Shown here: piece after piece, positions 1-56,904 of the stretch | Layout of the letters: each line of letters opens with the position of its first letter | Position numbering within the stretch: position 1 is the stretch's first letter | From: a virus | IMG/VR virus record: IMGVR_UViG_3300028394_000057 | Location: 27,336-91,335 of that record | Direction: 5' to 3' (one strand) | DNA: 64,000 nucleotides | Position numbers and translations under genes: made by a program | Notes under the pieces: generated by a model | Told to the model about the DNA's origin: nothing | The model's database searches: none | What the model saw: the letters and a program-made list of their open reading frames with translations, nothing else

Positions 1-347
1 ACGCAGAAAACATGCTTAGATTTGGTAATCAATATTACGCTATGGGTGGTATGGTTTATGCAAACAAGGGGCTTAAGGTTGCAGCAAGTAAGTATGCTCT
101 TGGAACTGATACTATTCCTGCTATGCTTACCCCAGGAGAATTTGTAATTAAAAAATCAGCAGTGGATTCAATTGGATTAAATAAACTTAATTCTATAAAC
201 TCTGGAACATTGTCATCTAATTCAGTGTATAATTATAGTATCAATGTTAATGTTAAATCAGATGCAAATGTAAACCAAATTGCAGATACTGTTATTAGAC
301 AAATTAAACAAATTGATTCACAAAGATTAAGGAGTGTCAGTATATAA
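1..347 (+). CDS. Tape measure protein, C-terminal part (5' end probably outside window)
   Basis: GG.V...GTDTIPAMLTPGEFVI motif typical of TMP C-termini; frame open to the window edge; precedes tail genes. Confidence 0.75.
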   Translation, partial: AENMLRFGNQYYAMGGMVYANKGLKVAASKYALGTDTIPAMLTPGEFVIKKSAVDSIGLNKLNSINSGTLSSNSVYNYSINVNVKSDANVNQIADTVIRQIKQIDSQRLRSVSI

Positions 348-40454: not shown

Positions 40455-40985
40455 ATGCAAACCTTTTTACCATATAAGCAGTTCGATAAGTCTGCACAAG
40501 CCCTAGATAATAAGCGATTAAATAAACAGATATTGGAGTCTTACCAGATTCTTAAGGTGTTGTCTAATGATGACCCGAAGGCTGCTTGGCGTAATCATCC
40601 TGCTGTTAAGATGTGGCGTAACCATGAGGGACAGTTGTGGCTATATACTATGGCTATGGTTGAGGAAGCAGATGTTCGTGGCATTAAGACTGACAAGAAT
40701 GTTAGTAATCTTAATGAACTTAAGTCTTGGGCTGGTGATTTGTGGGGGTATGGAAAACCTAAGTGGTATACAAACCCATTTGCAATGGATAGATTAACTA
40801 CTACACATAAGGCTAATCTATATACTAAGGATTCTATATACTATTTTGAGTTCTATGATTCATTGGCTACATCTAATCCTTGTTGCCCTGAGCGTAAAGA
40901 ACCTTGTAAGTATTATTGGGTTACACATGACCCACTATTTAAGGAGAACCATGAAACTACTAAAAGTTTTCAGATGGCGAGTTAA
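40455..40985 (+). CDS. Pyrimidine-dimer DNA glycosylase-like (MSMEG_6728 family)
   Basis: MQTFLPY..F..SA..LD.KRL.KQ..E..QIL, W.NHPAVKMW; TTGACA-17-TACAAT promoter. Confidence 0.8.
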   Translation: MQTFLPYKQFDKSAQALDNKRLNKQILESYQILKVLSNDDPKAAWRNHPAVKMWRNHEGQLWLYTMAMVEEADVRGIKTDKNVSNLNELKSWAGDLWGYGKPKWYTNPFAMDRLTTTHKANLYTKDSIYYFEFYDSLATSNPCCPERKEPCKYYWVTHDPLFKENHETTKSFQMAS

Positions 40986-41190: not shown

Positions 41191-41345
41191 AGGATATAGA
41201 TGCAGAGATGCATGAGTTACCTGACTATGAGAAAGGTATTCAGTTTGAGAGAGAACGTATCATAAAGATACTTCAGGATGAGATAGGTATAGACTATCCA
41301 CCAATTGATGACATTATCGAGTCTATCAAAAATTTCGGGGAATAA
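41178..41345 (+). CDS. Hypothetical protein
   Basis: AAGGAG RBS; YEKG...ERERII motif. Confidence 0.5.
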   Translation: MGRIKDIDAEMHELPDYEKGIQFERERIIKILQDEIGIDYPPIDDIIESIKNFGE

Positions 41346-41398
41346 AAAGAACCATCGTAATCCCTAGTATAAAATACACCTAGTAGAAAGAATAACAC

Positions 41399-41605
41399 AT
41401 GAGCAGATATGTACACACATACAAATATAATAAACTCACACAAGGAACAAGAAAGTATAGTCCTATCAGAGTAAAGTTCTGGCTATGGGGCTTTGAATTT
41501 ACCTATGAAACAAAGAAGTCTTTAGGTGGATTTGCTATCGCAGACAAACAAAATGTTCCTGATGTCAAGTCAGATGCATTCAAAAGAAAATATCCTAAAG
41601 CATAG
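41399..41605 (+). CDS. Hypothetical basic protein
   Basis: Last plus-strand ORF before the non-coding junction. Confidence 0.5.
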   Translation: MSRYVHTYKYNKLTQGTRKYSPIRVKFWLWGFEFTYETKKSLGGFAIADKQNVPDVKSDAFKRKYPKA

Positions 41606-41681
41606 TTATACACAGGAAATACCCTGAAAAAATACACACATCGTAAAGTTATCCACAGAGTTATCCACATGTTTATCCACA
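41606..41681 (+). promoter_or_regulatory. DnaA-box cluster
   Basis: TTATCCACA at 41649, 41661, 41673 and TTATACACA at 41606. Confidence 0.75.
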
Positions 41682-42266
41682 GATAAATCTTACTGATATA
41701 AACAGATATCATAGTGGAGCAAAGTGGAGAATAATTGTATGTGTAATTGAGCATATCTAACTATCCTCGTAATCATTTTTGCCAAACATCCTAGCCCCCT
41801 ATGCCAAACACCCCCTATCATATTTTGTGCATTTTGTCAAGTATTTTAACGATATTGTTATAAAAAACATATCAAATATTAAATAAACAAACATAATATG
41901 TATAAAAATGTGCAAAAATTATATAGGTTCGTAATCCCATATCCGCCTATGTGTTTATACTTATACTAGGGGAAATGTGTATCAAGGGTTGTTTGTGTAC
42001 CCTGGCTCTGCCAGCCCCTTCGGGGGTATATAAAAGAGTGTTCGTAATACCCCTATAGTAAATACACCTGATATAAACTCTGGGGATTTTTTTATGTCCT
42101 TCGTAATGTCAAATAAACTTATTTTATATACATAGACTTTGGGGAAAAATATTATACCTTCGTAATGTCTATTTATCAATAGCATGGCTATCATTGTTAT
42201 GGGATTGTTATAATTTTTGCGCAAAAAAATATACCCCTGCATCTCTGCAAGGGCATATCTAATTAG

Positions 42267-42461
42267 TTAGTCGAACTTAGAATCTTGTTCAACAATGCTA
42301 TCTAGGTTTTCTACGATAGCAGGTAGGTCAGACCATAGGTAATGGTAGAAGATACTTTCTATCTCACTAGCCAATACTTCCCACTGCTTATCTGTGAATG
42401 TGCGTGAGAAGAATGTCTCTACTTCTGAACGGTGAACTGTGTAATCTACTTTATTTTCCAT
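42267..42461 (-). CDS. Hypothetical protein
   Basis: TTGACA-17-TATAAT promoter, leaderless ATG. Confidence 0.6.
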   Translation of the reverse strand: MENKVDYTVHRSEVETFFSRTFTDKQWEVLASEIESIFYHYLWSDLPAIVENLDSIVEQDSKFD

Positions 42462-42479
42462 AATACAATTATACTCCTA

Positions 42480-42746
42480 CTACTGCTGATTGTCAAGGAA
42501 GATGTCATCTAATGTTACATAACCGTTATCTGTTTGCTCTAGGCTACCCAGCAATAAATCAAAGGTCTCATTGATAAACTTAGTAGACAGGGCTGTTGGC
42601 TTTACAATCTCATTGTCTAGCAGGTATGCCAGAGGAAGCCCTAAGTCATTATAGGAAATGAAGTCAGTAAAATTCTGGTCGTTACGATAGTTCATCCATA
42701 GTTCCGCTAGGATACTACATCTATCATCAAATGATGTTGCTGTCAT
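42480..42746 (-). CDS. Hypothetical protein
   Basis: C.ILAELW..Y......DFI.YNDLGLPLAY. Confidence 0.6.
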   Translation of the reverse strand: MTATSFDDRCSILAELWMNYRNDQNFTDFISYNDLGLPLAYLLDNEIVKPTALSTKFINETFDLLLGSLEQTDNGYVTLDDIFLDNQQ

Positions 42747-42928
42747 TTTTATTTTCTCTTTCGTGTTTCATTGCTTCTAATACAATTAGTAATCTTCTAT
42801 ATGCTACATTTGATAAGGTCATTGCTAAATACCGTCCAGCAAATTCTAAATCAAATCTTAGGTCTGATATCCAATTACTAAGTATCTCAGCAAACTTTTC
42901 TTCTTTTGTTCTTGTTTGTCTTCTCATA
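42727..42928 (-). CDS. Hypothetical protein
   Basis: GGAG RBS before MRRQTRTKEEK. Confidence 0.55.
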
Positions 42929-43056
42929 TTTATACTCCAATATTCTATTATACCAAAAATGTTGGGGAAGCACAAGTAGCAATATACCGCTCATGCTTCC
43001 CCTGGTAGTCAGACACAGAAACCCCTAACTGCTCTGACCATTAGTAGGGAGTGTTC

Positions 43057-43434
43057 TCAACCCACTAAGTCGTGAAGTTTACTTATACTATCTATCTCAT
43101 ATAGAGAGTCTTGACCTTCGATGTCTATACTATAGGGGTCAGGCAGGTCATTTAGGAAGTCGTTTATGTCCTTGCTGATTTCAAGGGCATACAGTTCGTC
43201 CCTAAAGTCCCACCAGTCAGTACCGTATTCTAGTTCACTACGGAACGCTCGTATCTTTGCAGTCTCGTTGATGTTACACTTATAAAGGATTCCTGTGTAT
43301 ACATGCGTAACCGCTTCTCCATCTAATATATATAAAGCAGGATTAAGAGTGATTACATCTTCCCATTGGTTGACACCATTCTCGTCATGTCCTAAATCTA
43401 CAAACCAAACATTTATATCCCAATACTTTGTCAT
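43057..43434 (-). CDS. Acidic hypothetical protein
   Basis: ORF track; coupled chain. Confidence 0.55.
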   Translation of the reverse strand: MTKYWDINVWFVDLGHDENGVNQWEDVITLNPALYILDGEAVTHVYTGILYKCNINETAKIRAFRSELEYGTDWWDFRDELYALEISKDINDFLNDLPDPYSIDIEGQDSLYEIDSISKLHDLVG

Positions 43435-43604
43435 ACGATTCGTTGCTCCAGTTCTTCTAGGGTTTCATTATTCCAACTAAGGTTATCATTATACCGCATC
43501 TGCTGTGAGATGTCAAGCACATTGTTGATAGCGTTTGTCCAGCCTTCTTCGTACCCTGCATCGTAGTCAGGGTTGTTGTTATACTTATTAATTTTATCTT
43601 CCAT
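43431..43604 (-). CDS. Hypothetical protein with YDAGYEEG repeat
   Basis: ATG near 43604 coupled to upstream stop. Confidence 0.5.
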   Translation of the reverse strand: MEDKINKYNNNPDYDAGYEEGWTNAINNVLDISQQMRYNDNLSWNNETLEELEQRIV

Positions 43605-43975
43605 TAGTAGTTCCAATCTGTGTAGGTTCCATCGCCACCACATTGGTCGCAATCTTGGTCAGGTTCAGTCTCTTCATCATCTGGATTATAGCAGTCACAT
43701 ACGACAAACTTGCAGATGGTAATGCAAATGTCATCGCTGTCATCCCACGGTATTTCAGTAACATAATAACTAATCCTATTAGCCAAGTGATAACCTTGAA
43801 CAAGATATACACCTTCATCACCATCTAACTCAGTCCATACGGTAGAGTTAGGTTGCTCACAAACAAATAGCACTTCATCACCATAGGTCTCAAATGATGT
43901 AGTGTCATCTTTAACTAAATGGTTTTTGATAGGCTTGTACTTATTTACCCATTCTTCATAGGTCATCTCACTCAT
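43604..43975 (-). CDS. Acidic hypothetical protein with C-terminal CxxC motifs
   Basis: FETYG.E, G.H..NRI.Y, CDQCGGDG. Confidence 0.6.
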   Translation of the reverse strand: MSEMTYEEWVNKYKPIKNHLVKDDTTSFETYGDEVLFVCEQPNSTVWTELDGDEGVYLVQGYHLANRISYYVTEIPWDDSDDICITICKFVVCDCYNPDDEETEPDQDCDQCGGDGTYTDWNY

Positions 43976-44157
43976 CAGAACTCAATCTCGTAGTCATCAA
44001 ACTCAACTGTGTATGAGTTGTTGCCATCCCATACCTTTATCTCGTTGGCAAGTTCAGCCACCTTATCGTGGATGTCATTGTCATCGTTAGGGTCTTCTAT
44101 CTCAACTTCAAACTCTTGTGAATACCAAAAGCGAACTGTTGCTGTTATCTTTTCCAT
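43975..44157 (-). CDS. Very acidic small protein
   Basis: ORF track; AG-rich RBS. Confidence 0.55.
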   Translation of the reverse strand: MEKITATVRFWYSQEFEVEIEDPNDDNDIHDKVAELANEIKVWDGNNSYTVEFDDYEIEF

Positions 44158-44174
44158 AGGGTTTACTCTCTCTC

Positions 44175-44723
44175 TTAGAAGTGGAAATCTACTGGCACTA
44201 AACAGTATACACTACGATAGGCTGTCTTGTCAATACCCAGTTTTTTTCTCAGGTATTCAGTCTTTACTGTGCAGTCGCCAGTGTCAAAGAAACCACTGTC
44301 CCAGTTCCAATAGCCACGCATAATCTTCAAAGCACTTGACAGGCTAGGAATGTTGGCTTCGTAAATCTCACCAAAATCAAGGGTATCTCCATTAGAATAC
44401 TTAGTCATAACAGCATTGATAGTAGGAAAATCAAACTCAGAAAAGTATTCGTTGAACTGTGCCAACTGCTTTTGGTCAATCAAATCTAATGCTTCTAAGA
44501 ATGAACAAGCATTGTCATCATTGTAGATAAGGACAGGAACATCTTCCCACCTGCCACCAACCTGATACCAATCAGACCAGCCACCAACAAAGCCCTCTGA
44601 TGTTGCTTCGTGGTTCAGCCATTCACCTACTTCTTCCTGTGCTAAGGCTCTAAGTTCTTCGTCTGTGTATTCATCTTCTAAATCAAGTTCTAGTTCTGTT
44701 GCTAGGTATTGCATAGTATGCAT
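44175..44723 (-). CDS. Acidic hypothetical protein
   Basis: DWYQVGGRW and VDFH motifs; boxed promoter at 44767. Confidence 0.65.
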   Translation of the reverse strand: MHTMQYLATELELDLEDEYTDEELRALAQEEVGEWLNHEATSEGFVGGWSDWYQVGGRWEDVPVLIYNDDNACSFLEALDLIDQKQLAQFNEYFSEFDFPTINAVMTKYSNGDTLDFGEIYEANIPSLSSALKIMRGYWNWDSGFFDTGDCTVKTEYLRKKLGIDKTAYRSVYCLVPVDFHF

Positions 44724-44957
44724 GGGTTTACTCTTTCTCTAGGTTATATATCTATGATACAGGATACCCCTGACATTTGCAATAGTTCTGGGGAAAATGT
44801 TATGCTTTCGTAATCAACCAGGATGTTTACAGGTTTACATAATCATGGGGAAATTGTTATAGCATCGTAATACTACCCAATGTTTATTAGTTTACATAAT
44901 TATTTTCTGCGCACAAAACCAGGGCAGTCAGATTGCTCCAACCACCCTGGTCCCCTA

Positions 44958-45134
44958 TTATCCCTATATGTCAGCCAAAACATTTCTAGCAGTCTCAACA
45001 AACTCATTGAATTCGTCTTCACGCTTTAGTCTCATCTCTATTAGTTTCAATACTTCTAGAGTAGGCATTTGATTTATACCCTTGACTTTTTTGAAACCGT
45101 CAATCATGGACAAGACGATTTCTTTGTCAGTCAT
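44958..45134 (-). CDS. Hypothetical protein (58 aa, not in track)
   Basis: MTDKEIVLSMIDGFKKVK... read manually. Confidence 0.45.
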
Positions 45135-45363
45135 TTACTTCTACCACTTCTATCATTTGATAAAGGTCATTATACTTTACGCTGTTGTATAGAATTTCCA
45201 GTAGTTCGTGATGAGCATAGTGAACCATGTCTTCCATTGTTCGTGGTTCCAGAGTTTCGCCTTCTTCAAGTTCGCTTTCAAGATACTCTCGTTCATTCTC
45301 GGTGTATCCATCATCTTCAAACTCAAAGTCCATTGTGATTTGTGCTCTAAGCATTTTAGGCAT
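45127..45363 (-). CDS. Acidic hypothetical protein
   Basis: AGGAG RBS before MPKMLRAQ. Confidence 0.55.
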   Translation of the reverse strand: MPKMLRAQITMDFEFEDDGYTENEREYLESELEEGETLEPRTMEDMVHYAHHELLEILYNSVKYNDLYQMIEVVEVND

Positions 45364-45706
45364 ACTTCTTCTCCTGCTTCTCCCAGTATTCGTCCTGAGC
45401 AATCATACTATCCAAATCGCTAATGCGACCTTCAATACAAGCAATAGCAAATCTGCTCAATGCTTTTGTGTGTAGTTCGTTTTCTAGTATTGCTAGTTCT
45501 TCTCTGTGTTGTTCCAACATAGTTTTTTCCAAGTCTTCTTCTCTTTCCTTATACATAGTTAGATAAATGTTTGCTTGTTCTGCTTCCCATTCATCGTGGG
45601 TAGGGCAGTAATCTTGATTGCCTTCGCAGATGTCGCAGAATGAATGGCAGTCAAAACTACCGTGATGTTTTGGACATTCTACTCTTTCGCAATCGCAATC
45701 ACTCAT
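45356..45706 (-). CDS. Cys-rich hypothetical protein
   Basis: CDC...CPKH...DCH.FC.IC....CPTH. Confidence 0.55.
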   Translation of the reverse strand: MSDCDCERVECPKHHGSFDCHSFCDICEGNQDYCPTHDEWEAEQANIYLTMYKEREEDLEKTMLEQHREELAILENELHTKALSRFAIACIEGRISDLDSMIAQDEYWEKQEKKYA

Positions 45707-45875
45707 TATCTTCTTCTTCTTCGTCTGCTTCTAGTTCTTCAACTTCAATAGAATAAACTCCGTCATAGTGTAGGTCATCTTCCCACTTCCAACCAATCGC
45801 TTCTGCTTCTGCTTCGCTATCTGCTTCTACTTCGTTGCTGAACTCAACAATGGTCTTTACATAGTATTTTGGCAT
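45699..45875 (-). CDS. Very acidic small protein (58 aa, not in track)
   Basis: MPKYYVKTIVEFSNEVEADSEAEAE...; downstream of boxed promoter 45923. Confidence 0.6.
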   Translation of the reverse strand: MPKYYVKTIVEFSNEVEADSEAEAEAIGWKWEDDLHYDGVYSIEVEELEADEEEEDNE

Positions 45876-45932
45876 TTGTTATCTTTCTGTTAGGGGGTGT
45901 TGTGTTTCTATTATAGGGGATACCACTGACAT

Positions 45933-46241
45933 CTAGGACATCATAGACGCTTTTTCAAGCATCTCGTCATAGAGTATCTTGGAATTATCATAGGATAGTT
46001 TGTCTTCTAGGTTGCTCTTGATAGTTCTGAGCATTCGCAGATAGGACTGGAACTCAGGACCACTGGTATCGTGCCAACCACGCTCCGCACTGTCCCATAG
46101 TTGTCTCTCTAATGCTTCTATCCCCCAAGTGTAGAATTGCCTAGTCTGCCATTGTTCTAGGTCATTTCCGTCAGGGTAGATGTAAGGAGCATCTTCTTCA
46201 TCATAAACAGGGGTAAGGATAATAGTTTCGTTTTCATTCAT
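45933..46241 (-). CDS. Hypothetical protein
   Basis: Leaderless start after boxed promoter 46261. Confidence 0.6.
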   Translation of the reverse strand: MNENETIILTPVYDEEDAPYIYPDGNDLEQWQTRQFYTWGIEALERQLWDSAERGWHDTSGPEFQSYLRMLRTIKSNLEDKLSYDNSKILYDEMLEKASMMS

Positions 46242-46415
46242 AAGTCAATTATACAGACTACCACTGACAAAAGCAATAGGCTTGGGGAAATCGTAACCCT
46301 TTCGTAATCAAGGTTTTTTGTTTATATAAACTATCTAAAATTTTGCGCACCGATTTGCCCACTTTGTCAAGTAGGAAATGGTGAGCAGTTTGAAATCTTG
46401 CTCAGGATTGTTTTA

Positions 46416-47429
46416 CTATACGGAAGCCAAAACCAAGTTCATCAAACGGTTTTTCTCAGCGTTGATTACAGGGTCAAAGCCAGAAGCAGAAGCGTAAATA
46501 CTTTCGTTGTTTGTGCCACGAGCATTACGATACCAGTCTAGGCGTTCTGTTAGAGCATTCATAGCACCCCAAGCAGTTCCAGCAATGGTGTTGTTGTATG
46601 TGCCAGTGTAGATAGATTGGATTAGTTCAATCTTATCAGACCACTTCTTCATAGAACCCTTGCTGTCCTTAGTTGGCATTGGATACGCTTTTAGAACAAT
46701 GTCGTTGAATTGCTGATTTGTGATTTCAGTTTCAATCATAGACTTAGCAAGAATGTCAAACTCGTCTAGGTAGTGATTAGCCAAGCCCAACGCTTCACGA
46801 GCAACAGCAATTTTACCCTCTGCGGTTTGTGTGTGTCTAATCTTGAATGATTGCTTCAAACCCTTTTTACCTTTTAGAGAAGATAGAGCAAGGTTGAGAG
46901 TGTTAGCACATACAACACGAACAGGAGTAATAGACGCTTGGATAGCGATACTTCCATCGTGGCTTGTGTTTAGTAGCAGGTATGACTTGACAACATCAGA
47001 CACGCCATTAGGGTCAAGGATAGTTTCACGCTCTAATGCGATTGAACCGAATACTTGTCTGCCACCCTTGATTGAACCAGCAGTTTCCCAACGACCGCCA
47101 CCATCTAGCAGGTTATCACCAAAAGAAAACAAGTCTTCATTTTGTAATGGAACATAACGCTCACCAACGACACCAAGAATGTCTGTCTGCTCTGCGTTGA
47201 ATGGATTAGTTCGTGATACGAATGAGTAGTTTCTATCGCTAGTGAAACCAGCAGGAACAACAACATCTTCAAGTCTGACATTCCAGTTGTCTAGGCTTGC
47301 GAGTGATAGCATTTCTGCGGTAGAAACTTCTTCATTGAATACAGTTCCTAGATTATGCCAAGCAGGTTGGCGGAGTGAAGCAAAACTAGCCTGACCAGTT
47401 GCTTCGTTGATTTCTAATTCGTGAGCCAT
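46416..47429 (-). CDS. DUF932 / TIGR03299-like phage-plasmid protein
   Basis: MAHEL...PAWH.LG, Y.P.QN, ETAGS..GG, SHDGS, RVVCANTL, RHT, GTAWG..NA.TE; start reset to 47429 (GAAAGG RBS). Confidence 0.85.
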   Translation of the reverse strand: MAHELEINEATGQASFASLRQPAWHNLGTVFNEEVSTAEMLSLASLDNWNVRLEDVVVPAGFTSDRNYSFVSRTNPFNAEQTDILGVVGERYVPLQNEDLFSFGDNLLDGGGRWETAGSIKGGRQVFGSIALERETILDPNGVSDVVKSYLLLNTSHDGSIAIQASITPVRVVCANTLNLALSSLKGKKGLKQSFKIRHTQTAEGKIAVAREALGLANHYLDEFDILAKSMIETEITNQQFNDIVLKAYPMPTKDSKGSMKKWSDKIELIQSIYTGTYNNTIAGTAWGAMNALTERLDWYRNARGTNNESIYASASGFDPVINAEKNRLMNLVLASV

Positions 47430-47696
47430 AGGGACTACACCTTTCATTGTTGGATTTATTTGATAGTCAATTATCCCACGATTTCGGGGATTTGTCAAGT
47501 GTTTCGTAAAACAATTTTGCATTCTTTACCATTTCGTTACTTTTCGGGGCGCAGAAAAATCCCCCTGCTACTTTCGGGATTGTGTCCAGACTTCACAGGG
47601 GGATTGTAAGCAGTTTAGACACTTGCTTAGGTGTTTGGCTAACACAAGCCCTGTGATTTACCCTTACGGAACAGGGGGCTAGGGGAAGCCAATGGT

Positions 47697-48134
47697 TTAT
47701 AGCAAATCAAGAACAGAGTTGTATGTGCTTGATGTGATTGTTTCCTGAGTGGTTAGTTTTAGAAGCGATAGTGTCTTCTCCAACTTTTCCTTTTTGTCCC
47801 TGTTCTGCCAAGTGTCAGGGTCGCTAGGCTTCTCTGGCTTTGTGCCAATCTTAGCAACGATTTCCTTGCCAACTGCGATAGAAACAGAACCACGATAATC
47901 GCTGTTGATAGAGATGTTGTCTTCTTGATTACCATAGTCGCTGTAATCAACAATAGACTTTTTGTTTTTGCTAACCAAGTCAATTAGGTCTGCTGTGAAA
48001 GAAACAATCTCTTTCTTGTATGCTGAAAGCAACTTTGGATAATCTGCTTCTGCCTTAGCAATTTCTGCTAACTTGTTCTCAATCATCTCTACTACTACTG
48101 ATGTTGGGAGTTTTACGGATACGGAACGAGCCAT
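47697..48134 (-). CDS. Hypothetical early protein
   Basis: TTTACA-17-TATAAT promoter at about 48178-48205. Confidence 0.65.
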   Translation of the reverse strand: MARSVSVKLPTSVVVEMIENKLAEIAKAEADYPKLLSAYKKEIVSFTADLIDLVSKNKKSIVDYSDYGNQEDNISINSDYRGSVSIAVGKEIVAKIGTKPEKPSDPDTWQNRDKKEKLEKTLSLLKLTTQETITSSTYNSVLDLL

Positions 48135-48250
48135 AATGTTTTACTACTTTCTATTAGTGGGTTTTTGTATAATACAATTATACAGGATTTAGGGGGATTT
48201 GTAAATAGGCAGTTTAGACATTTGCCTAGATGTTATAGTTCTGTTATGAA

Positions 48251-48408
48251 CTACTTGGCAGTTGTCCAGCGTGGCTGTCCAGCAACATCAAGTTTGATAC
48301 GGACAGAGCCGTTTGCGTTCTTGATTACTTCCTGAACAGTGCCAACAACGCCAGACTTCTGGGTTGCGAACTGTGAGCCAACAGATGGAATGGTAAATGA
48401 ATTAGCCA
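48251..48408 (-). CDS. Small SH3-like early protein
   Basis: VGSQF.T.KSGVVG.V.E; TTGACT-17-TATACT promoter; start approximated at MANSF. Confidence 0.6.
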
Positions 48409-48749
48409 TTTTTTGCTTCTTTCTACTTGTAGTTTTTCTCAACTTTTGTTGATAATACAAGTATAAGGCATAATCGGGGAAAAGTCAAGGGTATTCGTAA
48501 AAGATTTTTGTATCGTTATCATTTCGTTATCAAAATCGGGGCGCAGAATTTTAGTGAGCAGTTTATACACTTGCTCAGGTGTTAGGTATGTTATTATTCA
48601 GCAGTATTACCTCAATACCCTTTACTTGCCACTGCCTATTATGTTTTCTCCTTTTATCAAACATAAAAACTTTACCCAACTTTACCGCTTGGTGCGAGAG
48701 CAGTTTCAACACTTGCTCAGGTGCTTAGGCAGAAAAGAAAGGGAACTGC

Positions 48750-49133
48750 CTAAGATGTGATGTTCCAGTCATCTAATTCCCAGTGAGAGTTGTCTAGGTA
48801 TTCTTCTGCTACTCCCAAAGGATTTTCGGTAATGCCAAAATCTTCTGCTAACTTATCAGTATCAAAACCGATAGGGACAGTAAAGGTTGCTTGAACTTTG
48901 AAAGTCAATTCCATTTCAACTTCTTCTGTTAGTGTAAAGCCAAAGATTTCTGCTATCTCTGTTGCTGTGTCAAAGTCAATCTGCGAATTGGTTAGGGCTT
49001 CTTTCAACCAGTCTTCAAGTGTTTCTGTGTTTCTGGTCATCATACCTAATGCTTGCCAAAGGTCTTTGTTTTCTGTTGTTAGTTTTTCTAGTTCTTGTTT
49101 TAGTGCTGATAATACAGGGTGGTTGCTTTCCAT
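48750..49133 (-). CDS. Acidic hypothetical protein
   Basis: Boxed promoter 49176. Confidence 0.6.
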   Translation of the reverse strand: MESNHPVLSALKQELEKLTTENKDLWQALGMMTRNTETLEDWLKEALTNSQIDFDTATEIAEIFGFTLTEEVEMELTFKVQATFTVPIGFDTDKLAEDFGITENPLGVAEEYLDNSHWELDDWNITS

Positions 49134-49190
49134 TGTTTTCTTCTTTCTTTTAGTGTATCTCTATTATAAACCTAACCACTGACATTGTGA

Positions 49191-49567
49191 TTAGTCTTCG
49201 TCTTCTTCGTCATAGTCTTCACAGGTATCTCCACAGGCAGAGAAGCAAAGTTCGCATTCGTCTTCTTCTTGTTCTGCCCCTTGTGGAATAAGTGTTGTGA
49301 AGCCATCATTAGCATCTTCGTCTTCGCCTACGCTATGGACACCCTGAATAAACTTCAAGGCACAACTTTCGGCATACCACTTTTTTAGAGTGTCAAACAT
49401 TTCTGCTGGTTTCATTTCACTTCTGGTTCTAATCTCGTCATACTGATACTCACGCATAAGTTCTACTTGCTTGTCATCCATAAGCACATAGATTTTGTGG
49501 CAGGTATCAAAAGCGATACCCTGAGCAAACTGAACTGACATCTCTACATCATCCCAATAATCTTCCA
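49191..49567 (-). CDS. Acidic hypothetical protein
   Basis: IAFDTCHKIYVLMD, W...SC.LKFI; boxed promoter 49608; start approximated at MEDYW. Confidence 0.6.
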
Positions 49568-49693
49568 TTGGTTTCCTTTCTTCTTTGTATTTCAATTATA
49601 CAGGCTACCCCTGACATTTCGGGGATATTTAGCGTGTTTCGTAAATGTGTTATGAGTTTGTTATAAAAATCTGCGCACCCCGAAGGGTAGGAA

Positions 49694-49876
49694 CTAAGCC
49701 CTAGCCTTATCCCATTCATACTGCTCAATAAAGTTCTTAGCAGATAACCAAGCACGATACATTATTTCGTCATCAGGGCTTCCCTGTATGTCCCAACGCA
49801 ATAGTCTTCCTATTGTGTGTGAGTTTCTGTCTTCTAAGTCTGCTAATACTATTTCGTATGCTTTCTGTAATTCCAT
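49694..49876 (-). CDS. Hypothetical protein
   Basis: ORF track; RBS upstream. Confidence 0.5.
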   Translation of the reverse strand: MELQKAYEIVLADLEDRNSHTIGRLLRWDIQGSPDDEIMYRAWLSAKNFIEQYEWDKARA

Positions 49877-50147
49877 TATGCTTTCCTAACTATAATTACT
49901 TCTTCACAAGTTTCACACTCTAAGGCGTAGTCTGTTGGTTTTTCCCAACTAGAATACTTTGCGATTACTATGTCGTGGTCAAAGTGTTCTGCTAAATCCA
50001 TTAGTATCCTGCTTTCTCTAAAATTGCTAATAGGGCTTCTGCTTCTTCTTCTGTTAGTTTTGCTATTGCTTCTTCGTTGATTACATTATCAAAGTTTATC
50101 ATTTGTTTCCTTTCGTTAGAGTTCTATTATATTTGCTACCACTGACA

Positions 50148-50348
50148 TTAGACTTCATCTTGCCATTTACCACAATTTTCACAAACTGCATCTCCAATAC
50201 CCATGTTCCAAATCAAAGGCTCAAAGGAACAAGAATTACATTTATGATAAGACACTCCATACAACTCCATGTCTTTTTCAGACATCTCATCCCAATAGAT
50301 TTTATGTGTTTTAGTTTCACACTCTTTACAATTTATACTAACTGACAT
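50148..50348 (-). CDS. Small zinc-finger protein
   Basis: CKEC, CNSC, CENCG. Confidence 0.55.
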   Translation of the reverse strand: MSVSINCKECETKTHKIYWDEMSEKDMELYGVSYHKCNSCSFEPLIWNMGIGDAVCENCGKWQDEV

Positions 50349-50565
50349 CACTTAGCCACTCATCACAAACTGAACAAGCCCACTCTAAGTTTTCTGCTTG
50401 TGTAAAATCGTGGTCGTTCTTCTCAAACCACTCTGCGAAACTAGGTCTGTTCCAATCAGCACAACTGTCAAGGTAGTTGTAAAAGTGTTCGTCAAAACTT
50501 TCGTTATCTACAACAACCATACCTTCGCTATCGCCATAACTTCCGTCAAATGCTACATACAACAT
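50338..50565 (-). CDS. Acidic hypothetical protein
   Basis: YVAFDGSYG; AAGGAG RBS; TTGACT-17-GATAAT promoter. Confidence 0.6.
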   Translation of the reverse strand: MLYVAFDGSYGDSEGMVVVDNESFDEHFYNYLDSCADWNRPSFAEWFEKNDHDFTQAENLEWACSVCDEWLSDVS

Positions 50566-50908
50566 AGGGGTTCTCCTTCTTTATCTTATAATCCATTATC
50601 CCAGAAAATCAGGGAAAAGTCAAGGCTATTCGTAAATGAGTTATGGGTTTGTTATCAAAATCGCTGCGCAGCCTTTCGCCTACTATTGTAGGAAAAAGAC
50701 TACTAAGATTATTAGTATTAGTGTGCCGATTATCTGTAATGTATTCATACTCAATTATCTCACGATTGTCTTAGTAAGTCAAGAGCCTTTTTGTGTTCCA
50801 TGATGTCTGCACAATAGCGACACAAATCAGTTCCTTCCCAATTTTCGTCAATACATGCAACAGGGTCATTGTCATCTTCTACATTTTGACATGCAATCCA
50901 AGCCATTT

Positions 50909-51427
50909 TTACAACTCCACTTCTTCGTCATTGTGAGTAAAGTAATCATTAGAGCAGTCAATACACATACCCAGTTCTTCAGCGTGTATGTCTTTAGACA
51001 TTAGTTCTCCACAGTTATCACAAGGCAGGGTATGAACAAAATCAAAATCAAAATAAGCACCCATTGGCTCATCGTGAGAGCCACGCCTAGCAGTTAGTTT
51101 CTTGTTTGGAATGTCAAGTGTCCAAGTGATAGTGAAATCTCCGTTGATAGTCAAAATACTATCAAGTTTATCAAGCGTAGTTTTAGCAGAGCCTTCCAAG
51201 TTTTGCCAAGTCATTCTTCTGCCCTTGATTAGAATAAAGTCATCTTCTGCAATCTCATTTAGTTTCTGCCACTCACCAATAACATAAGCGGTATCTTCTT
51301 TCTGCATCTCATAGCAATCGCCATAGCAGTATTCCATAGGCACAAACTCGCCTAGTTCTTCGTTGTAATCTTCGCAAGTGCAATCTGAAGATAGTGTTGC
51401 AATCATTACATCTAAGTTCTGTTCCAT
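50909..51427 (-). CDS. Hypothetical protein with SHDEP motif
   Basis: Start reset to 51427 (AAAGGAAA RBS after boxed promoter 51469); W....G, GDFT, SHDEPMG. Confidence 0.6.
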   Translation of the reverse strand: MEQNLDVMIATLSSDCTCEDYNEELGEFVPMEYCYGDCYEMQKEDTAYVIGEWQKLNEIAEDDFILIKGRRMTWQNLEGSAKTTLDKLDSILTINGDFTITWTLDIPNKKLTARRGSHDEPMGAYFDFDFVHTLPCDNCGELMSKDIHAEELGMCIDCSNDYFTHNDEEVEL

Positions 51428-51458
51428 TAGGGTTTCCTTTTCTTTTGATAATACTATT

Positions 51459-51572
51459 TTACTTGATACCACTGACATTATGACAATCGCAAGAGCAACA
51501 ATTACAATCACTAAAATTGTCATTACAGGTAGCGTGATAACCTAAATCACATCTAGGGGTAATGTAAATCAT
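51459..51572 (-). CDS. 37-aa Cys-rich micro-protein (not in track)
   Basis: MIYITPRCDLGYHATCNDNFSDCNCCSCDCHNVSGIK; GAAAGGA RBS after boxed promoter 51609. Confidence 0.5.
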   Translation of the reverse strand: MIYITPRCDLGYHATCNDNFSDCNCCSCDCHNVSGIK

Positions 51573-51967
51573 AGTCTTCCTTTCTTGATAATACTATTTT
51601 ACACCTAACCACTGACATTGGCGGTATTTAGGGGGAGTTTCGTATGTATCGTAACATAAGCGTTACAATCGGGTGCGCAGCCCGAAGGCTACCGTTTATA
51701 GGTAATCGAAAACATCTCCGTCAAATCTGGATGTTTCTAGTTCTTCCATTAGTTGAAAAACATCTATTTCGCCATTGTGATACTGGTCAAATAGTTCTTG
51801 GGCTTCTTCCATTTATCTCTCCTTGTTTGATAATACTATTATAGAACTAACCACTGACATTGCAGGGGTCATCACATTCAGCGTCATGTTCGTGGTCACA
51901 CACATAACAAACCATGAACTCATTTAGGTCTTCTGGGTCGTAGTCATCTAAACATTCTTTACAGGTA

Positions 51968-52267
51968 TTAAGCATTTAGCACACTTTCTACGATGTAGTC
52001 TTCTAAACCAAAATACTTTACTAAGTCAATAGCAGGAACTCCGTCTTCGCCTGTCAAATCTGGCAGGGTATTTAGAATAATAGGTTGATTAGCATTATCT
52101 CCATTTACAAAGTCAAGAGCAAATACCATTTCTTCTGCCAACTCTCTAAGGTCAATACGATTACCATAAGTAGAGCGTAAGCCCTTACCAATAAAGATTT
52201 GATATATTTGTTCTTCTAGGGGATAACTCTCAATGCCTAGTAGATTTAGTTTAGTTGATTTAGCCAT
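51968..52267 (-). CDS. Hypothetical protein
   Basis: AAGGAG RBS. Confidence 0.55.
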   Translation of the reverse strand: MAKSTKLNLLGIESYPLEEQIYQIFIGKGLRSTYGNRIDLRELAEEMVFALDFVNGDNANQPIILNTLPDLTGEDGVPAIDLVKYFGLEDYIVESVLNA

Positions 52268-52437
52268 TAGTTATACTCCTTGATAGCCTTGATGATGTTT
52301 GATTTGCGACTACCCTTGCGAGTGGCAGGAGTAGCGACTAGGTGCTTATTTAGCAACAGACTTCTAAAAAGTTCTGCCGAGTGAGCGTTGCGAGTAGCCT
52401 GTGCTACTTTATTTAGTGGTGGCTTTCTTTTCTTCAT
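52267..52437 (-). CDS. Small basic protein
   Basis: Leaderless MKKRKPP after boxed promoter 52457. Confidence 0.55.
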   Translation of the reverse strand: MKKRKPPLNKVAQATRNAHSAELFRSLLLNKHLVATPATRKGSRKSNIIKAIKEYN

Positions 52438-52716
52438 AGTCCTATTATACATTACACCACTGACATTGTGGGGATTTGGGAAACATTTCATAACTATCGT
52501 AACTCAATTGTGACCTTTCGGGTGCGCAGAAAAATTGCCACCCCGAAGGGTAGCAATCAAAACCTAAAAAGGTTTGAGTGTGTCTATTGTTCTAGACAAC
52601 TTGACGATAACATCTTTTTGGTTATCAACAATTTTCTTATACTGACTAAGCAAATAACTCTGCCAGAATAAATAACCAACTAGAATAACTCCAATAACTG
52701 CGAATACAATTTCCAT

Positions 52717-52905
52717 TTATCTCTCCCAACAAGCGTCAAAAAACTTACCAGATAAAAATCTGTCGTTGTCATTTTTGAACATCTCAGCAAACTCATTTAC
52801 TAAATCGCTAAAAATCTGCTCACCCTCTAAACCCAAACTTTCAAGAGCAGGTCTAAATGCTGAGAGTATGTCAGCAGTTTCAACATAGTCCTTGCGTGTC
52901 ATCAT
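52717..52905 (-). CDS. Hypothetical protein
   Basis: MMTRKDYV..A.IL...F..DN.RF...KF..AC motif. Confidence 0.6.
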   Translation of the reverse strand: MMTRKDYVETADILSAFRPALESLGLEGEQIFSDLVNEFAEMFKNDNDRFLSGKFFDACWER

Positions 52906-53114
52906 TAGTTATCTTCCTTACCTGCGTTGATTAGGATTGTGATTAGTTCTTGGCGTTCTTCGGTTGATAATTCCAAAGCCAGTTCTAATGCGTGGCTTGT
53001 TCCGTGTCCAGTGTGATTGCGAGTTCTGATTGTTAGATTGAACCAGTTTTCACTTCCAAAACTAAAACCGCCAAAAGTGTATCTTTCATTTTTATTTTCC
53101 ATTTTATTTTCCAT
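52905..53114 (-). CDS. Hypothetical protein
   Basis: Boxed promoter 53145. Confidence 0.55.
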   Translation of the reverse strand: MENKMENKNERYTFGGFSFGSENWFNLTIRTRNHTGHGTSHALELALELSTEERQELITILINAGKEDN

Positions 53115-53154
53115 TTCTTCTTGATGTTATTATTATACAACCTACCACTGACAT

Positions 53155-53331
53155 TTAGAGTTGGTCAGCAGTATAGTCTTTTAGTTCTTCACGCCAATCG
53201 TCAGGGTCTTCACCCAGATAGTTCAGGGTATCCAAGTTTAGTGGCATTACGCCATCATAGTCTTTACAGGTATAGCAGATGTGGTCATCTATGCTAAATA
53301 GGGAGTAGCAAAATACGCAGATGTTTTTCAT
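53155..53331 (-). CDS. Zinc-finger micro-protein (58 aa, not in track)
   Basis: MKNICVFC...ICYTCKDYDGVM. Confidence 0.6.
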   Translation of the reverse strand: MKNICVFCYSLFSIDDHICYTCKDYDGVMPLNLDTLNYLGEDPDDWREELKDYTADQL

Positions 53332-53748
53332 TTATTTCTCATTTCTTTTCTTGATAATACTATTATACCCCCTACCACCGACATTTGGCAATAGGCAATT
53401 TTCGGGGCGCAGGTCTGCGCACCCCGAAGGGTAATGAGTTAGCAATCTCCGAAGAGTTCACTCTCAACAGTAGACCAGTCATCTTCATACTCGTTCAGGT
53501 CTTGGTCGCCCTCATAGTCATCAGACTCGTAGTTATCGCTGTATAGTAGCATAGTTGCCTTTCTTGGTTGATAGAATAATTATACTTTGAACCACTGACA
53601 TCGGGGAAAAACCAGGAGAAACGTAATTACCTTCGTAAATCGTTTCGGGGCGCAGGTTAGCGCAGAAAGTTGCGCAGAAATTTTGGTGCAATTATTTATT
53701 GTATAAAATAAATAACTACAACCAAAACTAAAACTACACAAATAAAAA

Positions 53749-53949
53749 TCACTCTTCATCTTCCTGCTCTTGCAAGAAATCAATATATTCATCAACAGAA
53801 ATTTGATACATGATTGGGTCGCAGTTTGCAAGAATTTGAGATGCATAAAAATCTGAGTATCCAATTTTGTAAGGTGGATAAAGTTCGTCTAGCATTTCGT
53901 CATGCATGGCTTCTAGTTCTTCTTGGCTGTGCTGTTCTCTAATGTCCAT
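53749..53949 (-). CDS. Acidic hypothetical protein
   Basis: DEMLDE.Y...KIG...F.AS.IL..CDPI.Y. Confidence 0.6.
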   Translation of the reverse strand: MDIREQHSQEELEAMHDEMLDELYPPYKIGYSDFYASQILANCDPIMYQISVDEYIDFLQEQEDEE

Positions 53950-54034
53950 TAGTTTTGCTCCTCTGCTTGATAGTTGAAAAGATAATCTAAAAATTCTTCT
54001 AGTGCTTGACTTTGTAGTGTGTGAAAACTTAGCA

Positions 54035-54235
54035 TTAGTTTTGCTCCTTGTTTTTGTCTAGTTGGTAAAGTGAACCTAGCGTATAGGCTTGGTCAAATAT
54101 TTGTCTAAAGTTTACAACTTGATAAATGTCAATGCCAGCATCATCAGCATAAGATTTTACCTTATTCCAATAAGTCCAAAAGTCTTGCTCACGCTTGGCG
54201 TAAAACTTTTCCATATTATCCATTTTATTTTCCAT
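54035..54235 (-). CDS. Hypothetical protein
   Basis: Boxed promoter 54263. Confidence 0.5.
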   Translation of the reverse strand: MENKMDNMEKFYAKREQDFWTYWNKVKSYADDAGIDIYQVVNFRQIFDQAYTLGSLYQLDKNKEQN

Positions 54236-54750
54236 TTCTTTAGATTTCAATTATACAACTAACCACTGACATTTATCCTAGCGGACACGCTTGGCTTCAG
54301 GGTGTTCAATTAGAAATAACATTAGGTCTAATTGGTGAATAGCAGAAATAACGGTTTCTCCGTTGCTAGTGTATTCAAATAGGGTGTATCTCTTGCTAGG
54401 GTTTTTGTGTAATCTCATTAGTTATCTTTCTTTTTAGTTAGTTCAATTATAGCGGATACCACTGACATCTTACCAGCGGTAAGCGTGTTCGTGTTCATTC
54501 ACTAACTTTTCAAACTCTTCGCTTGTAGCGAACTCAATTACAGTTCCACACTTGGCACATTCGGCAGTATCTTTACTCAATTTATTTCTCATTTCTTTTT
54601 ATCTACTTACAGTATAAACCTAACCACTGACATTTAGGCGGACAAACACACATTTTTATGCCTTTATAACAATAGTGTTATAAATGTTTTTCGGGCGTGT
54701 CGTTCGGGGCGCAGAAAATTTTGGGTAGTTAGCCCAAAACTTTTTTACTT

Positions 54751-54969
54751 TTACTTTTTGCGTGAGCGAATTATAAATACTAACGCTAAAATAAATGCTA
54801 AGATAAAAAACTGAACGCTTACAAATCCCCAAATACCAGACTGAACTTTATCAGTAGCGTCATCAGTAAATACTGATAAATAATTTAGAGTGTCAGAGAT
54901 GAAGAAAGAAAAGATACCAGCAATCAACGCTGACATTACAATTCCAATTTTTAGAAAGTTTTTTTCCAT
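54751..54969 (-). CDS. Small two-TM membrane protein
   Basis: Two hydrophobic helices, basic tail. Confidence 0.55.
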   Translation of the reverse strand: MEKNFLKIGIVMSALIAGIFSFFISDTLNYLSVFTDDATDKVQSGIWGFVSVQFFILAFILALVFIIRSRKK

Positions 54970-55285
54970 TAGTTATTTTCCTTTTTGTCAGTTTTGATTT
55001 GAGAGATAAAGTCTTCTCTCATTGACTTTTGGATTTCTGCCAAAGCAATTTTCCAGTCTTCCATTATTTATTCTCCATCTTATTTACAATTTGAGCAATC
55101 AACGCTTTTTGCTTTTGAGTTAGTTGTCCAAAACATAGACCATAAGCATAGGCAACAGGATTTTCACCAGCAACGCCATCTTTTAGTCTTAGTTCGTTCA
55201 TTAGTCTAAAAGTGTCAAAGTCTTTATCTAACATTTATTTTCCTATTCTTTTCTTACTTACAATTATACAGGATACCACTGACAT

Positions 55286-55444
55286 TTATTCAGCAGTTTC
55301 CAATTCATCAGCATACATTTCAGCAATAAAGTCATACTCTTTTACTGCCTTGCTGATTTCCATTAGACCATCATACTCTTTACAAGTAGGGCAGATGTAA
55401 GCCCAAGTTTTAGTTCCGTCATAGACACAGATAATTCCAACCAT
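55286..55444 (-). CDS. Zinc-finger-like micro-protein (52 aa, not in track)
   Basis: MVGIICVYD...ICPTCKEYDGLM; similar to 53155-53331. Confidence 0.55.
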   Translation of the reverse strand: MVGIICVYDGTKTWAYICPTCKEYDGLMEISKAVKEYDFIAEMYADELETAE

Positions 55445-55642
55445 TTTTTTTATTTCCTATTCTTTTTGTAGATTATTATTTAGTTATGCTTTTTAGTTTT
55501 GCGAACATTGCCATAAGTTCATCAAACTCACTTGCGAGCATTGTGTCGCTTTCAGCGATAGCCATTAGTTCTTTGTATCTTGCTTTGATTTCGTAGTTGG
55601 TCATTTGTTAGTCCTTTCTTTGACTACTATTACACTACCAGC

Positions 55643-55871
55643 GACCACTGACATTTAGGGGATGTTTAGGGGTGTGTTGCTATTTCGTTATCGAACTGTT
55701 ATTTTTTGCCTAGTAGATACTTTACAAGGTTCTTTTCAGCAGTAGTTAGGGGGATACCTGCTCTGGCATACTTAGCAAGCATTATGGTTAGTTCTGTCTT
55801 TTTATCTTTCATAGTATTACTATACACTAGACCACTGACATTTAGGGGATGTTTAGGGGTGTGTTGCTATT
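55643..55871. repeat. 42-bp exact direct repeat flanking a one-gene cassette
   Basis: GACCACTGACATTTAGGGGATGTTTAGGGGTGTGTTGCTATT at 55643-55684 and 55830-55871. Confidence 0.9.
55699..55812 (-). CDS. 37-aa basic micro-protein (not in track)
   Basis: Leaderless MKDKKTELTIMLAKYARAGIPLT... Confidence 0.5.
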   Translation of the reverse strand: MKDKKTELTIMLAKYARAGIPLTTAEKNLVKYLLGKK

Positions 55872-56176
55872 ATGTTATCTATTTGTTATACTTGGGGGCG
55901 CAGCCCGAAGGCTAGACCCTAGTAGTCAGAGTCATCAGCAAACCAATCATCACCGCCTATGTATGGCGAGTAAGCCACACCTGTAACCTCATCACGCCCA
56001 CACTTGTGGTCTTTGCTGAATGGAAGAGAAACCCAGCCCTCGCAAGAGTCGCAGAAAATGTGCTTCATAGTTTTTACCTTTCGTTATAAGATAACCTTAG
56101 CAGAACTAACATACATTGTCAATAGCAACACACCTATCGTTATCATCTTGTTACATATCGGGGGGCGCAGAAAAAT

Positions 56177-56251
56177 TGGGGTGTCTAGAGAGAATTGAAC
56201 TCTCATTGCTTAGACCACAACTAAGCGTTCTACCATTGAACTATAGACACC
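56177..56251 (-). tRNA. tRNA-His(GTG) with encoded G-1 and CCA
   Basis: G-GTGTCTA / TAGACAC-C-CCA; CTTAG-TTGTGGT-CTAAG anticodon arm; GTTCAATTC T loop. Confidence 0.9.
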
Positions 56252-56277
56252 ATATTTTATTTAGTATTGTTATTGCG

Positions 56278-56386
56278 TGGTCTAAGTGAGTTACGCTCTC
56301 ACACTCTTACAATCTAGTAGGTGCTTATCTGTTTTACCAGTGTAGCGTTCCTATCGCTGTTGTCGCTCTCTATGAGCCATTAGACC
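56278..56386 (-). ncRNA. tRNA-like RNA with expanded anticodon region
   Basis: GGTCTAA/TTAGACC-A acceptor, GCTC/GAGC D stem, GTGAG-N7-CTCAC T-like arm. Confidence 0.55.
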
Positions 56387-56507
56387 TTATTTAGTTATCA
56401 ACTTTTATTTCTTATAGTATTACTATACACCTAACCACTGACATTTGACGCACCAACACACCTTTATTACATTTCGTTATCAATTAGTTATAATTGGGGG
56501 CGCAAAG

Positions 56508-56585
56508 GGTAGCGTGTAGGTACAAATGTATTTAACAAAGGGTAGCGTGTACCCTCTGTGTGCTCACTATAAGTGGTAGCGTGTA
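56508..56585. repeat. Three GGTAGCGTGTA direct repeats
   Basis: At 56508, 56541, 56575 (33-34 bp period). Confidence 0.8.
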
Positions 56586-56679
56586 CCCTACATATCATGT
56601 ATCATACACATTAGCAAAATATTCAGATTTTGTTAAATATGATTTTAAAATATTTTTCAGATTTTGGCGGTATGTATGT

Positions 56680-56904
56680 TTACTGTCTTTTGACAAAGTA
56701 TGAACCATAACTATCGTGTTTAACATACCAGTATGATTTACATTTGTTGCATTGCCAATCTTGTTTTGGATGAAAGTATTGTACATATGGTACTTTGCAG
56801 TGGTGTATTTTGTTTTCTGTGTCTCTAAATTTGATTTGGTGATGTAGATAAGCAAATATGCCTATAAATATTAATATAGATAACGATATGATAACGATTT
56901 CCAT
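56680..56904 (-). CDS. Small membrane-anchored Zn-ribbon protein
   Basis: N-terminal TM, HHC..P...WQCNKC. Confidence 0.5.
   Translation of the reverse strand: MEIVIISLSILIFIGIFAYLHHQIKFRDTENKIHHCKVPYVQYFHPKQDWQCNKCKSYWYVKHDSYGSYFVKRQ

Follow-up and report, generated by a model that had tools for sequence, protein, structure and literature searches.

A conserved non-coding module headed by DnaA boxes at the distal end of the early-gene block of a probable freshwater actinophage

That phage DNA can carry DnaA boxes is already known, from lambda and P1 as well as from T5, for which it was checked here in the sequence record. In T5-like phages, pairs of DnaA boxes 3 bp apart occur in the untranslated iss region (preprint 10.1101/866236). 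The T5 record (AY587007.1) places these pairs at 9358/9370 and 9419/9431 on the − strand and at 6106/6118 on the + strand, in DNA that is rich in repeats and devoid of genes, past the terminators of the rightward pre-early genes and 0.7 kb from the inner end (10139) of the 10,139-bp terminal repeat. The origins of T5 are reported to lie near the middle of the genome, and a stop of DNA entry at iss mediated by DnaA is a proposal (10.1101/866236); the iss arrangement is therefore not an origin in that phage. In Escherichia coli, chromatin immunoprecipitation sequencing (ChIP-seq) of DnaA found that box pairs 2 or 3 bp apart are bound and that insertion of one base abolishes the binding (PMC11317965). 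The basal unwinding layout of bacterial origins comprises at least three DnaA-trios (NAN, consensus 3'-GAT-5') within ~16 bp of a box (PMC8287927). The present analysis concerns an array of DnaA boxes at the start of a 660-bp non-coding gap (41606-42266) in a viral DNA. The window, that is, the whole stretch of 64,000 nucleotides that was analysed, covers positions 27,336 to 91,335 of the IMG/VR record IMGVR_UViG_3300028394_000057, and coordinates refer to it unless they are marked as genome coordinates.

An array of DnaA boxes and its probable binder

Three perfect copies of TTATCCACA are arranged head to tail on the + strand at 41649-41657, 41661-41669 and 41673-41681, with a period of 12 bp, gaps of 3 bp and the flanks aGTTATCCACAGg; the spacing follows the rule seen in the E. 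coli ChIP-seq data (PMC11317965). An outlying box, TTATACACA, occupies 41606-41614 on the same strand, directly 3' of the stop codon of the gene at 41399-41605. The positions and the shared orientation of the four boxes agree with those given in an initial annotation, which had been made from the sequence alone and had proposed an oriC-like locus. The outlying box has the same sequence as E. coli R2, and a copy stands at the same place in three relatives (L001, L007, L009). In the whole genome of 91,335 bp there are five perfect boxes, compared with 1.1 ± 1.3 for composition-matched 9-mers, and TTATCCACA is the sole 9-mer of the genome with three copies at a period of 10-13 bp. A chance origin of the triple array is excluded.

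The behaviour of the boxes in related phages was followed in 160 loci (2.09 Mb) retrieved from IMG/VR with two proteins encoded near the locus. These loci contain TTATCCACA 476 times, an 18-fold enrichment over composition-matched words (26.5 ± 16, maximum 158). The initial annotation had made its reading depend on the conservation of the boxes in relatives, and such conservation was found: an array of at least two boxes is present at the syntenic site in 13 of the 14 close relatives, defined by at least 70% identity of the neighbouring gene. Among 388 distinct box contexts in the relatives, a second perfect box follows at +12 (55 cases) or +11 (17 cases), once at +13 and never at +10, and further partner boxes are offset by 21, 33 and 42-45 bp, which corresponds to one face of the helix. 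Partner boxes with one mismatch carry almost exclusively a C-to-A change at position 5 (63 cases) or an A-to-T change at position 3 (17 cases), and no such partner was observed at out-of-phase control offsets; this pattern therefore reproduces the classical DnaA rule TTWTNCACA. Moreover, the consensus flanks in the relatives, aG-TTATCCACA-Gg, are the flanks of R1 and R4 in the E. coli MG1655 record, and the family spacing of +11/+12, that is, gaps of 2-3 bp, conforms to the E. coli pair rule. The two features that define membership among DnaA-site arrays, the 9-mer itself (TTATCCACA or TTWTNCACA) and a pair spacing of 2-3 bp, are thus both found at this locus.

Judged from these comparisons, the boxes are an element under selection. 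The three boxes together with the outlier at 41606 can be regarded with good confidence as a selected docking array for host DnaA, which would bind one protomer per helical turn in head-to-tail order. The enrichment, the spacing and the TTWTNCACA variants make host DnaA very probably the binder. Helically phased head-to-tail repeats are equally typical of iterons, and many nearby phage genes have no known function; the array might therefore consist of iterons for an unrecognised phage initiator or regulator, or serve some other host protein with the same preference. This alternative is nevertheless improbable, as four independent features (the 9-mer, the flanks, the tolerated variants and the 2-3 bp spacing) agree with DnaA, no protein resembling DnaA domain IV is encoded in the genome, and the identical triple array is present at chromosomal dnaA loci.

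The last point comes from a scan of metagenome contigs for the exact triple TTATCCACA array at a 12-bp period, which returned at least 120 contigs. Seventeen of them adjoin dnaA or dnaN, and arrays of this form are therefore used at real origins. In the same set (L168-L287), 9 contigs encode relatives of the phage's proteins and 94 are unclassified; two contigs (L186 and L222) carry nine or more boxes in unbroken register, and a 116-kb contig (L219) carries 28 boxes. The phage itself encodes no DnaA-like protein, as the search of its whole genome with PF00308 and PF08299, including for a stand-alone DNA-binding domain, gave none. No initiator family was found among the neighbouring and replication-module open reading frames (ORFs) that were scanned, a genome scan that was not exhaustive. 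The absence of a recognisable initiator, claimed in the initial annotation, is borne out to this extent.

The conserved non-coding module

According to the alignments, a conserved cis-acting module of ~650 bp (41606-42260) has the array as its fixed left end. The module was defined by alignments of 11 and then of 38 diverse instances, and its motifs were counted over ~55-60 distinct instances. The gap had been described as largely non-coding, and this is correct: the ORFs within 41606-42266 are not conserved as proteins, and the flanking genes are. The elements follow one another in a fixed order, which begins with two to seven co-oriented boxes. A TTACGA half-site (41641-41646, −) adjoins the array, an arrangement which motif comparison also finds at the early-region "operon heads" of relatives. 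Immediately behind the last box, the conserved block GATAAATCTTACTGAT (41682-41697, +) includes a TTACTG motif, 9 nt after that box, which is invariant in the 38 diverse modules. In one close relative (L006, 7540-7620), palindromes of the TTTACATGTAAA type occupy the exact site of the boxes, and the remainder of the module is retained, including the TTACTG motif and the GTGGAG repeats.

Two AGTGGAG repeats ~10 bp apart follow at 41713-41729 (+), and distant relatives have three. The − strand of the two repeats gives TTCTCCACT and TGCTCCACT, which match a DnaA box at 7/9 and 6/9 positions and are inverted with respect to the strong array; they may represent weak inverted DnaA boxes. The next element is a TTACGA box (41767-41772, −), nearly invariant as TCGTAAT. 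Its position is fixed across the module instances, at 94-96 bp from the last box if counted start to start and at +86 to +91 if counted from the box end. It is followed by CCAAAC..CCCCCTA direct repeats (41774-41817, +), the copy number of which varies among relatives.

A promoter-like sequence, designated P2 (41811-41839, −), matches the consensus as TTGACA, 17 nt and TGn-TAGGGG, and points leftward to the array ~130 nt away. A transcript from P2 would begin G-rich over the CCAAAC..CCCCCTA repeats. Of 60 distinct modules, 48 have the pattern TTGACA-16..18-TAnnn[T/G] with a TGn extension and 51 contain a perfect TTGACA; across the instances the P2-type promoter is aimed at the array from a distance of 70-170 nt. 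The AT-rich tract noted in the initial annotation is real; it extends over 41820-41925, contains 83-90% AT and is a candidate unwinding region. Although the sequence diverges, 55 modules remain enriched in AT between +150 and +260 from the last box. At the right edge of the tract lies an inverted consensus-type box, TTTTGCACA (41909-41917, −); because such a box is present in 11 of 56 modules, the bracketing of the tract is weak evidence and was not relied upon.

The right half of the module holds four boxes of the form TTACGA-N11-(T)TTCCCC (41929-42165, −), with TTACGA at 41934, 42047, 42106 and 42165 and the last three 59 bp apart. The same bipartite box also precedes ~15 early promoters. 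On the − strand of 41360-53638 it occurs in at least 15 copies, upstream of or inside early promoters; at some of these the −35 element TTGACW falls inside the N11 spacer, and the second half of the box, TTTTCCCCA, differs by a single base from the DnaA-box variant TTTTCCACA. At 42000-42030, two GC-rich hairpins (CTGGC/GCCAG and CCCC/GGGG) stand side by side; they are kept in L007 and L011. A second promoter-like sequence, TTGATA-17-TATAAT (42151-42179, −; 11/12 matches), has a TTACGA box in its spacer and is directed into the module with no ORF behind it; a TTGACA...TATAAT counterpart is kept in five relatives (L005, L007, L009, L011 and L013). Finally, a hairpin followed after 4 nt by seven T (42223-42254, −) is the likely terminator of the last early operon; this terminator escaped a simple scan owing to a bulge and to the 4 nt between hairpin and T run. 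Ahead of the last early gene, a perfect TTGACA-17-TATAAT consensus was observed at 42468-42496 (−).

The conservation of the module is explained by no ORF, Rfam family or covarying RNA fold. A search of the module against Rfam gave only a sub-threshold chance match, the stretch from P2 to the array has no covarying pairs that would indicate a conserved RNA fold, and the region 41300-42500 has no DNA match among cultured phage records.

Origin, boundary element and other possible functions

The module may be a replication origin that requires both host DnaA and local transcription, a reading to which a probability of about 0.36 is given. In such an origin, the two − strand promoters (42179-42151 and P2, 41839-41811) would fire into gene-free DNA, and the P2 transcript, with its G-rich start over the CCAAAC..CCCCC repeats beside the AT tract, would favour strand opening or an RNA-DNA hybrid. 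A DnaA oligomer formed on the strong array and on the inverted weak boxes ~30 bp off could then hold the opening or recruit the phage DnaB-type helicase, after which the phage primase and DnaE would take over. The origin reading fits best because P2 is aimed at gene-free DNA, its transcript would start G-rich, the AT tract and the weak inverted boxes are in place, and no phage initiator was found. In addition, the polarity from boxes to AT tract is the polarity from R1 to the unwinding element in E. coli oriC.

A number of observations weigh against an origin. Beside the boxes there is no run of DnaA-trios; past the last box only TAT-AAA-CAG was found, at 15 nt, a single stretch of three NAN units located in a portion of the sequence that is variable among relatives, and neither strand has a TAG or CTA repeat there. 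The AT tract lies on the correct side, 140-250 bp from the array, which itself adjoins just 33 bp of 73% AT, and the tract is just the sixth most AT-rich 100-bp window of the genome. Because DnaA-trios are missing and the AT tract is ~140 bp away, the locus is not oriC-like in the strict sense; what stands of that description are the selected DnaA-type boxes, an AT tract on the side of the R1-unwinding element and the lack of an initiator. Moreover, genes converge on the locus, which is 25 kb from the replication genes. The array is found downstream of the neighbouring gene in just ~1/4 of the more distant relatives, and L006, in which the neighbouring gene is 84% identical, has palindromes in place of the boxes. 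The match of the boxes was judged by the classical and E. coli rules, from which the preference of the actinobacterial host may differ. A very similar arrangement in T5 is not an origin (10.1101/866236). The array is also placed downstream of a conserved promoter, in an early block where relatives carry many box pairs. Five whole relatives (93-96 kb) have 6-12 perfect boxes each, compared with 0-1 for a reversed-word control, and nearly all of them fall within one early block of 15-19 kb, many as 12-bp pairs beside hairpins or the heads of early genes. Since the boxes are confined to the early block, they constitute a general regulatory early-region device of the lineage, of which the present genome keeps just the module array.

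GC skew, one of the checks suggested in the initial annotation, is uninformative in this case. Its cumulative maximum at the locus falls on the point where the coding strand switches, the AT skew changes its sign there too, and the − strand island at 28.7-34 kb shows the same behaviour. Elsewhere in the window, the most AT-rich intergenic stretch of the genome (57557-57808, 88% AT) separates diverging − and + strand genes immediately beyond the early block; it is a further candidate for an unwinding region but has no DnaA boxes.

The source is a single viral contig of 91,335 bp, rated complete, which starts and ends within a collagen-like (Gly-Pro-Thr) repeat gene (genome 1-200 and 91136-91335). 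Since both contig ends are inside this gene, the assembly broke in the repeat and the map is probably circular. The helicase, primase and DnaE named in the initial annotation were confirmed, the first as a DnaB-like helicase and the last as a DnaE-type polymerase, and the phage also encodes a UvsX-like recombinase and WhiB. Among cultured phages, Streptomyces phages of the Jay2Jay group come closest to it (~50-55% protein identity), and the sequencing runs that contain the phage and have a named source are all from freshwater or lake water; it is therefore considered a freshwater actinophage. An actinobacterial host is likewise indicated by the phage WhiB and the Streptomyces-phage kin. The sole relatives of this WhiB in the genome collection, L164 and L165, were binned into metagenome-assembled genomes of Nitrososphaera and Flavobacterium and are most likely mis-binned phage contigs.

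The locus is situated at the distal end of the early-gene block. Transcription converges on it as initially annotated, with + strand genes on the left and − strand genes from 42267 onward. The last + strand gene (41399-41605) encodes a 68-amino-acid protein that is conserved down to 34% identity in relatives and has no PHROG or Pfam match; the first − strand ORF (42267-42461) is the last early gene. The "DNA binding protein" encoded at 40455-40985 was ruled out as an initiator. It is a T4 endonuclease V-like pyrimidine-dimer DNA glycosylase (PF03013, E 3e-20) with 371 IMG/VR relatives and is widely conserved in the clade.

In three public runs, the depth of error-free Logan contigs steps up ~2.2-2.4-fold between ~41.2 and 56.7 kb, a coarse measure, as the depths were taken from assembled contigs. 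In run X2 the depth rises from ~4.4-6.7 outside the block to 10-12.4 within it, and in run X3 from ~3-3.8 to 6.5-8.3. In run X1 it is 28.3-28.5 within the block, and the contigs that straddle the edge (16.4-20.6) back-calculate to ~12 outside. The block at ~41200-56700 carries ~45 small early genes. In Jay2Jay, a direct terminal repeat of 11,438 bp is visible as duplicated gene coordinates; it has the same layout as the block described here, with two small + strand genes at the left end and then − strand early genes, and includes a homologue of 46416-47522. No DnaA boxes were found in the Jay2Jay repeat. The contig depths and the synteny suggest that the early block (42.2-57 kb) is probably a terminal repeat of ~15.5 kb that was collapsed by the assembly. 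The module would then probably lie 0.4-1.1 kb inside the left boundary of this repeat and, being inside it, would be present in two copies per packaged genome. The high-depth block has at its right edge three copies of GGTAGCGTGTA with a period of 34 bp (56507-56590), which are followed by an AT-rich stretch and could belong to the other repeat boundary.

The main rival of the origin reading is a boundary element of the T5 iss kind, a possibility that is regarded as rather doubtful. Here, DnaA bound to the array would mark the inner edge of the terminal repeat and act as a roadblock or anchor, which stops host RNA polymerase, and perhaps DNA entry driven by transcription, where the early DNA that enters first comes to its end; the remaining genome would be insulated until the early proteins have acted. 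The depth step and the Jay2Jay repeat of the same layout are in agreement with such an element, as are the T5 pairs with their 12-bp period in a gene-free stretch close to the inner end of a repeat, and DnaA has been described as a roadblock to elongating polymerase (literature cited in PMC11317965). The boundary element accounts for the position of the array, downstream of promoters and behind a terminator, for its orientation and for the restriction of boxes to the early block throughout the family. However, it leaves the conserved P2 unexplained, as its sole product would be blocked, and likewise the conserved AT tract. The terminal repeat was deduced from contig depths and synteny, not from read ends, the role of DnaA in T5 itself is just a preprint proposal, the inverted-repeat arrangement of T5 with its 52-bp spacer is absent here, and the Jay2Jay repeat is devoid of boxes. 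The readings are not all exclusive, and an origin located at a repeat boundary could double as a barrier.

The array may also act as a sensor of the host state, in which array-bound DnaA-ATP tunes a local transcript, either the P2 RNA, which as an antisense RNA would extend into the two small + strand genes, or those genes themselves. Such tuning would tie a phage decision to the replication status of the host, as the promoter-side box pairs of relatives may do. The arrangement of box and TTACGA is the same as at the early-gene heads of relatives, boxes are found in the early blocks of the five whole relatives, and a replacement of the boxes by another motif, as in L006, is what regulator sites typically show; moreover, DnaA is known to act as a transcription factor on pairs spaced by 2-3 bp (PMC11317965). 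On the other hand, no − strand gene lies downstream of the array, the stretch from P2 to the array has neither a conserved RNA fold nor an Rfam match, and none of the ~15 early promoters in the present genome has a DnaA box, which makes a sensor distinctly unlikely.

As the initial annotation had proposed beside an origin, the array may be a sink that titrates or inactivates host DnaA in the manner of datA and so blocks host initiation. High-affinity boxes at optimal spacing would suit this function, their number would multiply with phage copy number and be doubled if they are part of the terminal repeat, and relatives carry 6-12 perfect boxes per repeat. However, the present genome has just four boxes at the site, for which reason the sink is the weaker of the two hypotheses here. 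A sink requires neither a fixed position nor conserved partner elements, and L006 manages without boxes. A sink is accordingly very improbable.

Comparison with known systems

DnaA serves as a helper at P1 oriR, pSC101 and RK2 oriV, and the lambda origin is activated by transcription from pR with the aid of DnaA. Origins of a similar general logic are lambda pR/ori, the primary origin of T7 at the end of the early region, and T4 oriF and oriG. As in P1 oriR, pSC101, RK2 oriV and lambda, DnaA boxes, an AT tract, direct repeats and a nearby promoter are combined in the present module. Those systems differ in having a cognate Rep or O initiator gene and iterons, whereas no initiator was found here among the ORFs that were scanned. 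The four TTACGA-N11-TCCCC boxes that flank the AT tract, three of them at 59-bp distances, look like operator sites rather than iterons, since the same box is present at ~15 early promoters.

With bacterial oriC (PMC8287927, PMC6669920), the locus shares tandem high-affinity boxes, flanks of the R1/R4 type, gaps of 2-3 bp and AT-rich DNA 3' of 5'-TTATCCACA. In contrast to oriC, it has no DnaA-trios within 16 bp, its AT tract is ~140 bp off, there is no linkage to dnaA or dnaN, and it is enclosed by converging phage genes. The sites at which DnaA regulates transcription or forms a roadblock in E. coli (Stringer, Fitzgerald and Wade 2024, PMC11317965) are similar in that pairs 2 or 3 bp apart form the bound unit; they are found at cellular promoters, whereas the phage array stands at the 3' ends of converging units and has no gene downstream.

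The T5 iss region has several features in common with the locus. In both phages, the boxes form pairs 3 bp apart with TGTGGATAA in the direction of early transcription, they are situated in a large, gene-free, repeat-rich stretch behind the terminators of early (in T5, pre-early) genes, and their distance to the inner end of a long terminal repeat, in the present phage the one deduced above, is 0.5-0.8 kb. When mirrored, the T5 layout is the one observed here, and the boxes are also oriented alike with respect to early transcription. The two differ in that the T5 pairs are contained in inverted repeats (IRD'-52 bp-IRC') and half of the T5 boxes are off-consensus, whereas at the present locus three or four perfect boxes share one orientation and have a promoter and an AT tract next to them, and only weak GTGGAG look-alikes are inverted. 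Furthermore, the hosts of the two phages belong to different phyla, and there is no sequence homology between them.

The phages of the dominant freshwater actinobacteria are not yet cultivable. For the start of their replication and the timing of their early genes, the module offers one concrete cis element, which can be synthesised and tested with purified DnaA. What is new in comparison with the boxes already known from phage DNA is a conserved composite module, traced through ~60 variants within a large clade of uncultured actinophages, as well as its probable location in a terminal repeat and the convergence with T5. If the module is an origin, it would be an example of a lytic phage that encodes DnaE and DnaB and relies on the host initiator. 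A broader proposal, which is considered unlikely, is that this freshwater actinophage clade and, by convergence, T5-like coliphages place DnaA-box pairs at the inner edge of an early-gene terminal repeat, with host DnaA as a general gatekeeper. DnaA in this function could halt DNA entry or transcription, or switch from early transcription to replication according to the DnaA-ATP state of the host. Should the parallel with T5 hold, it would bear on what stops the entry of T5 DNA and on why DnaA boxes are located at that site.

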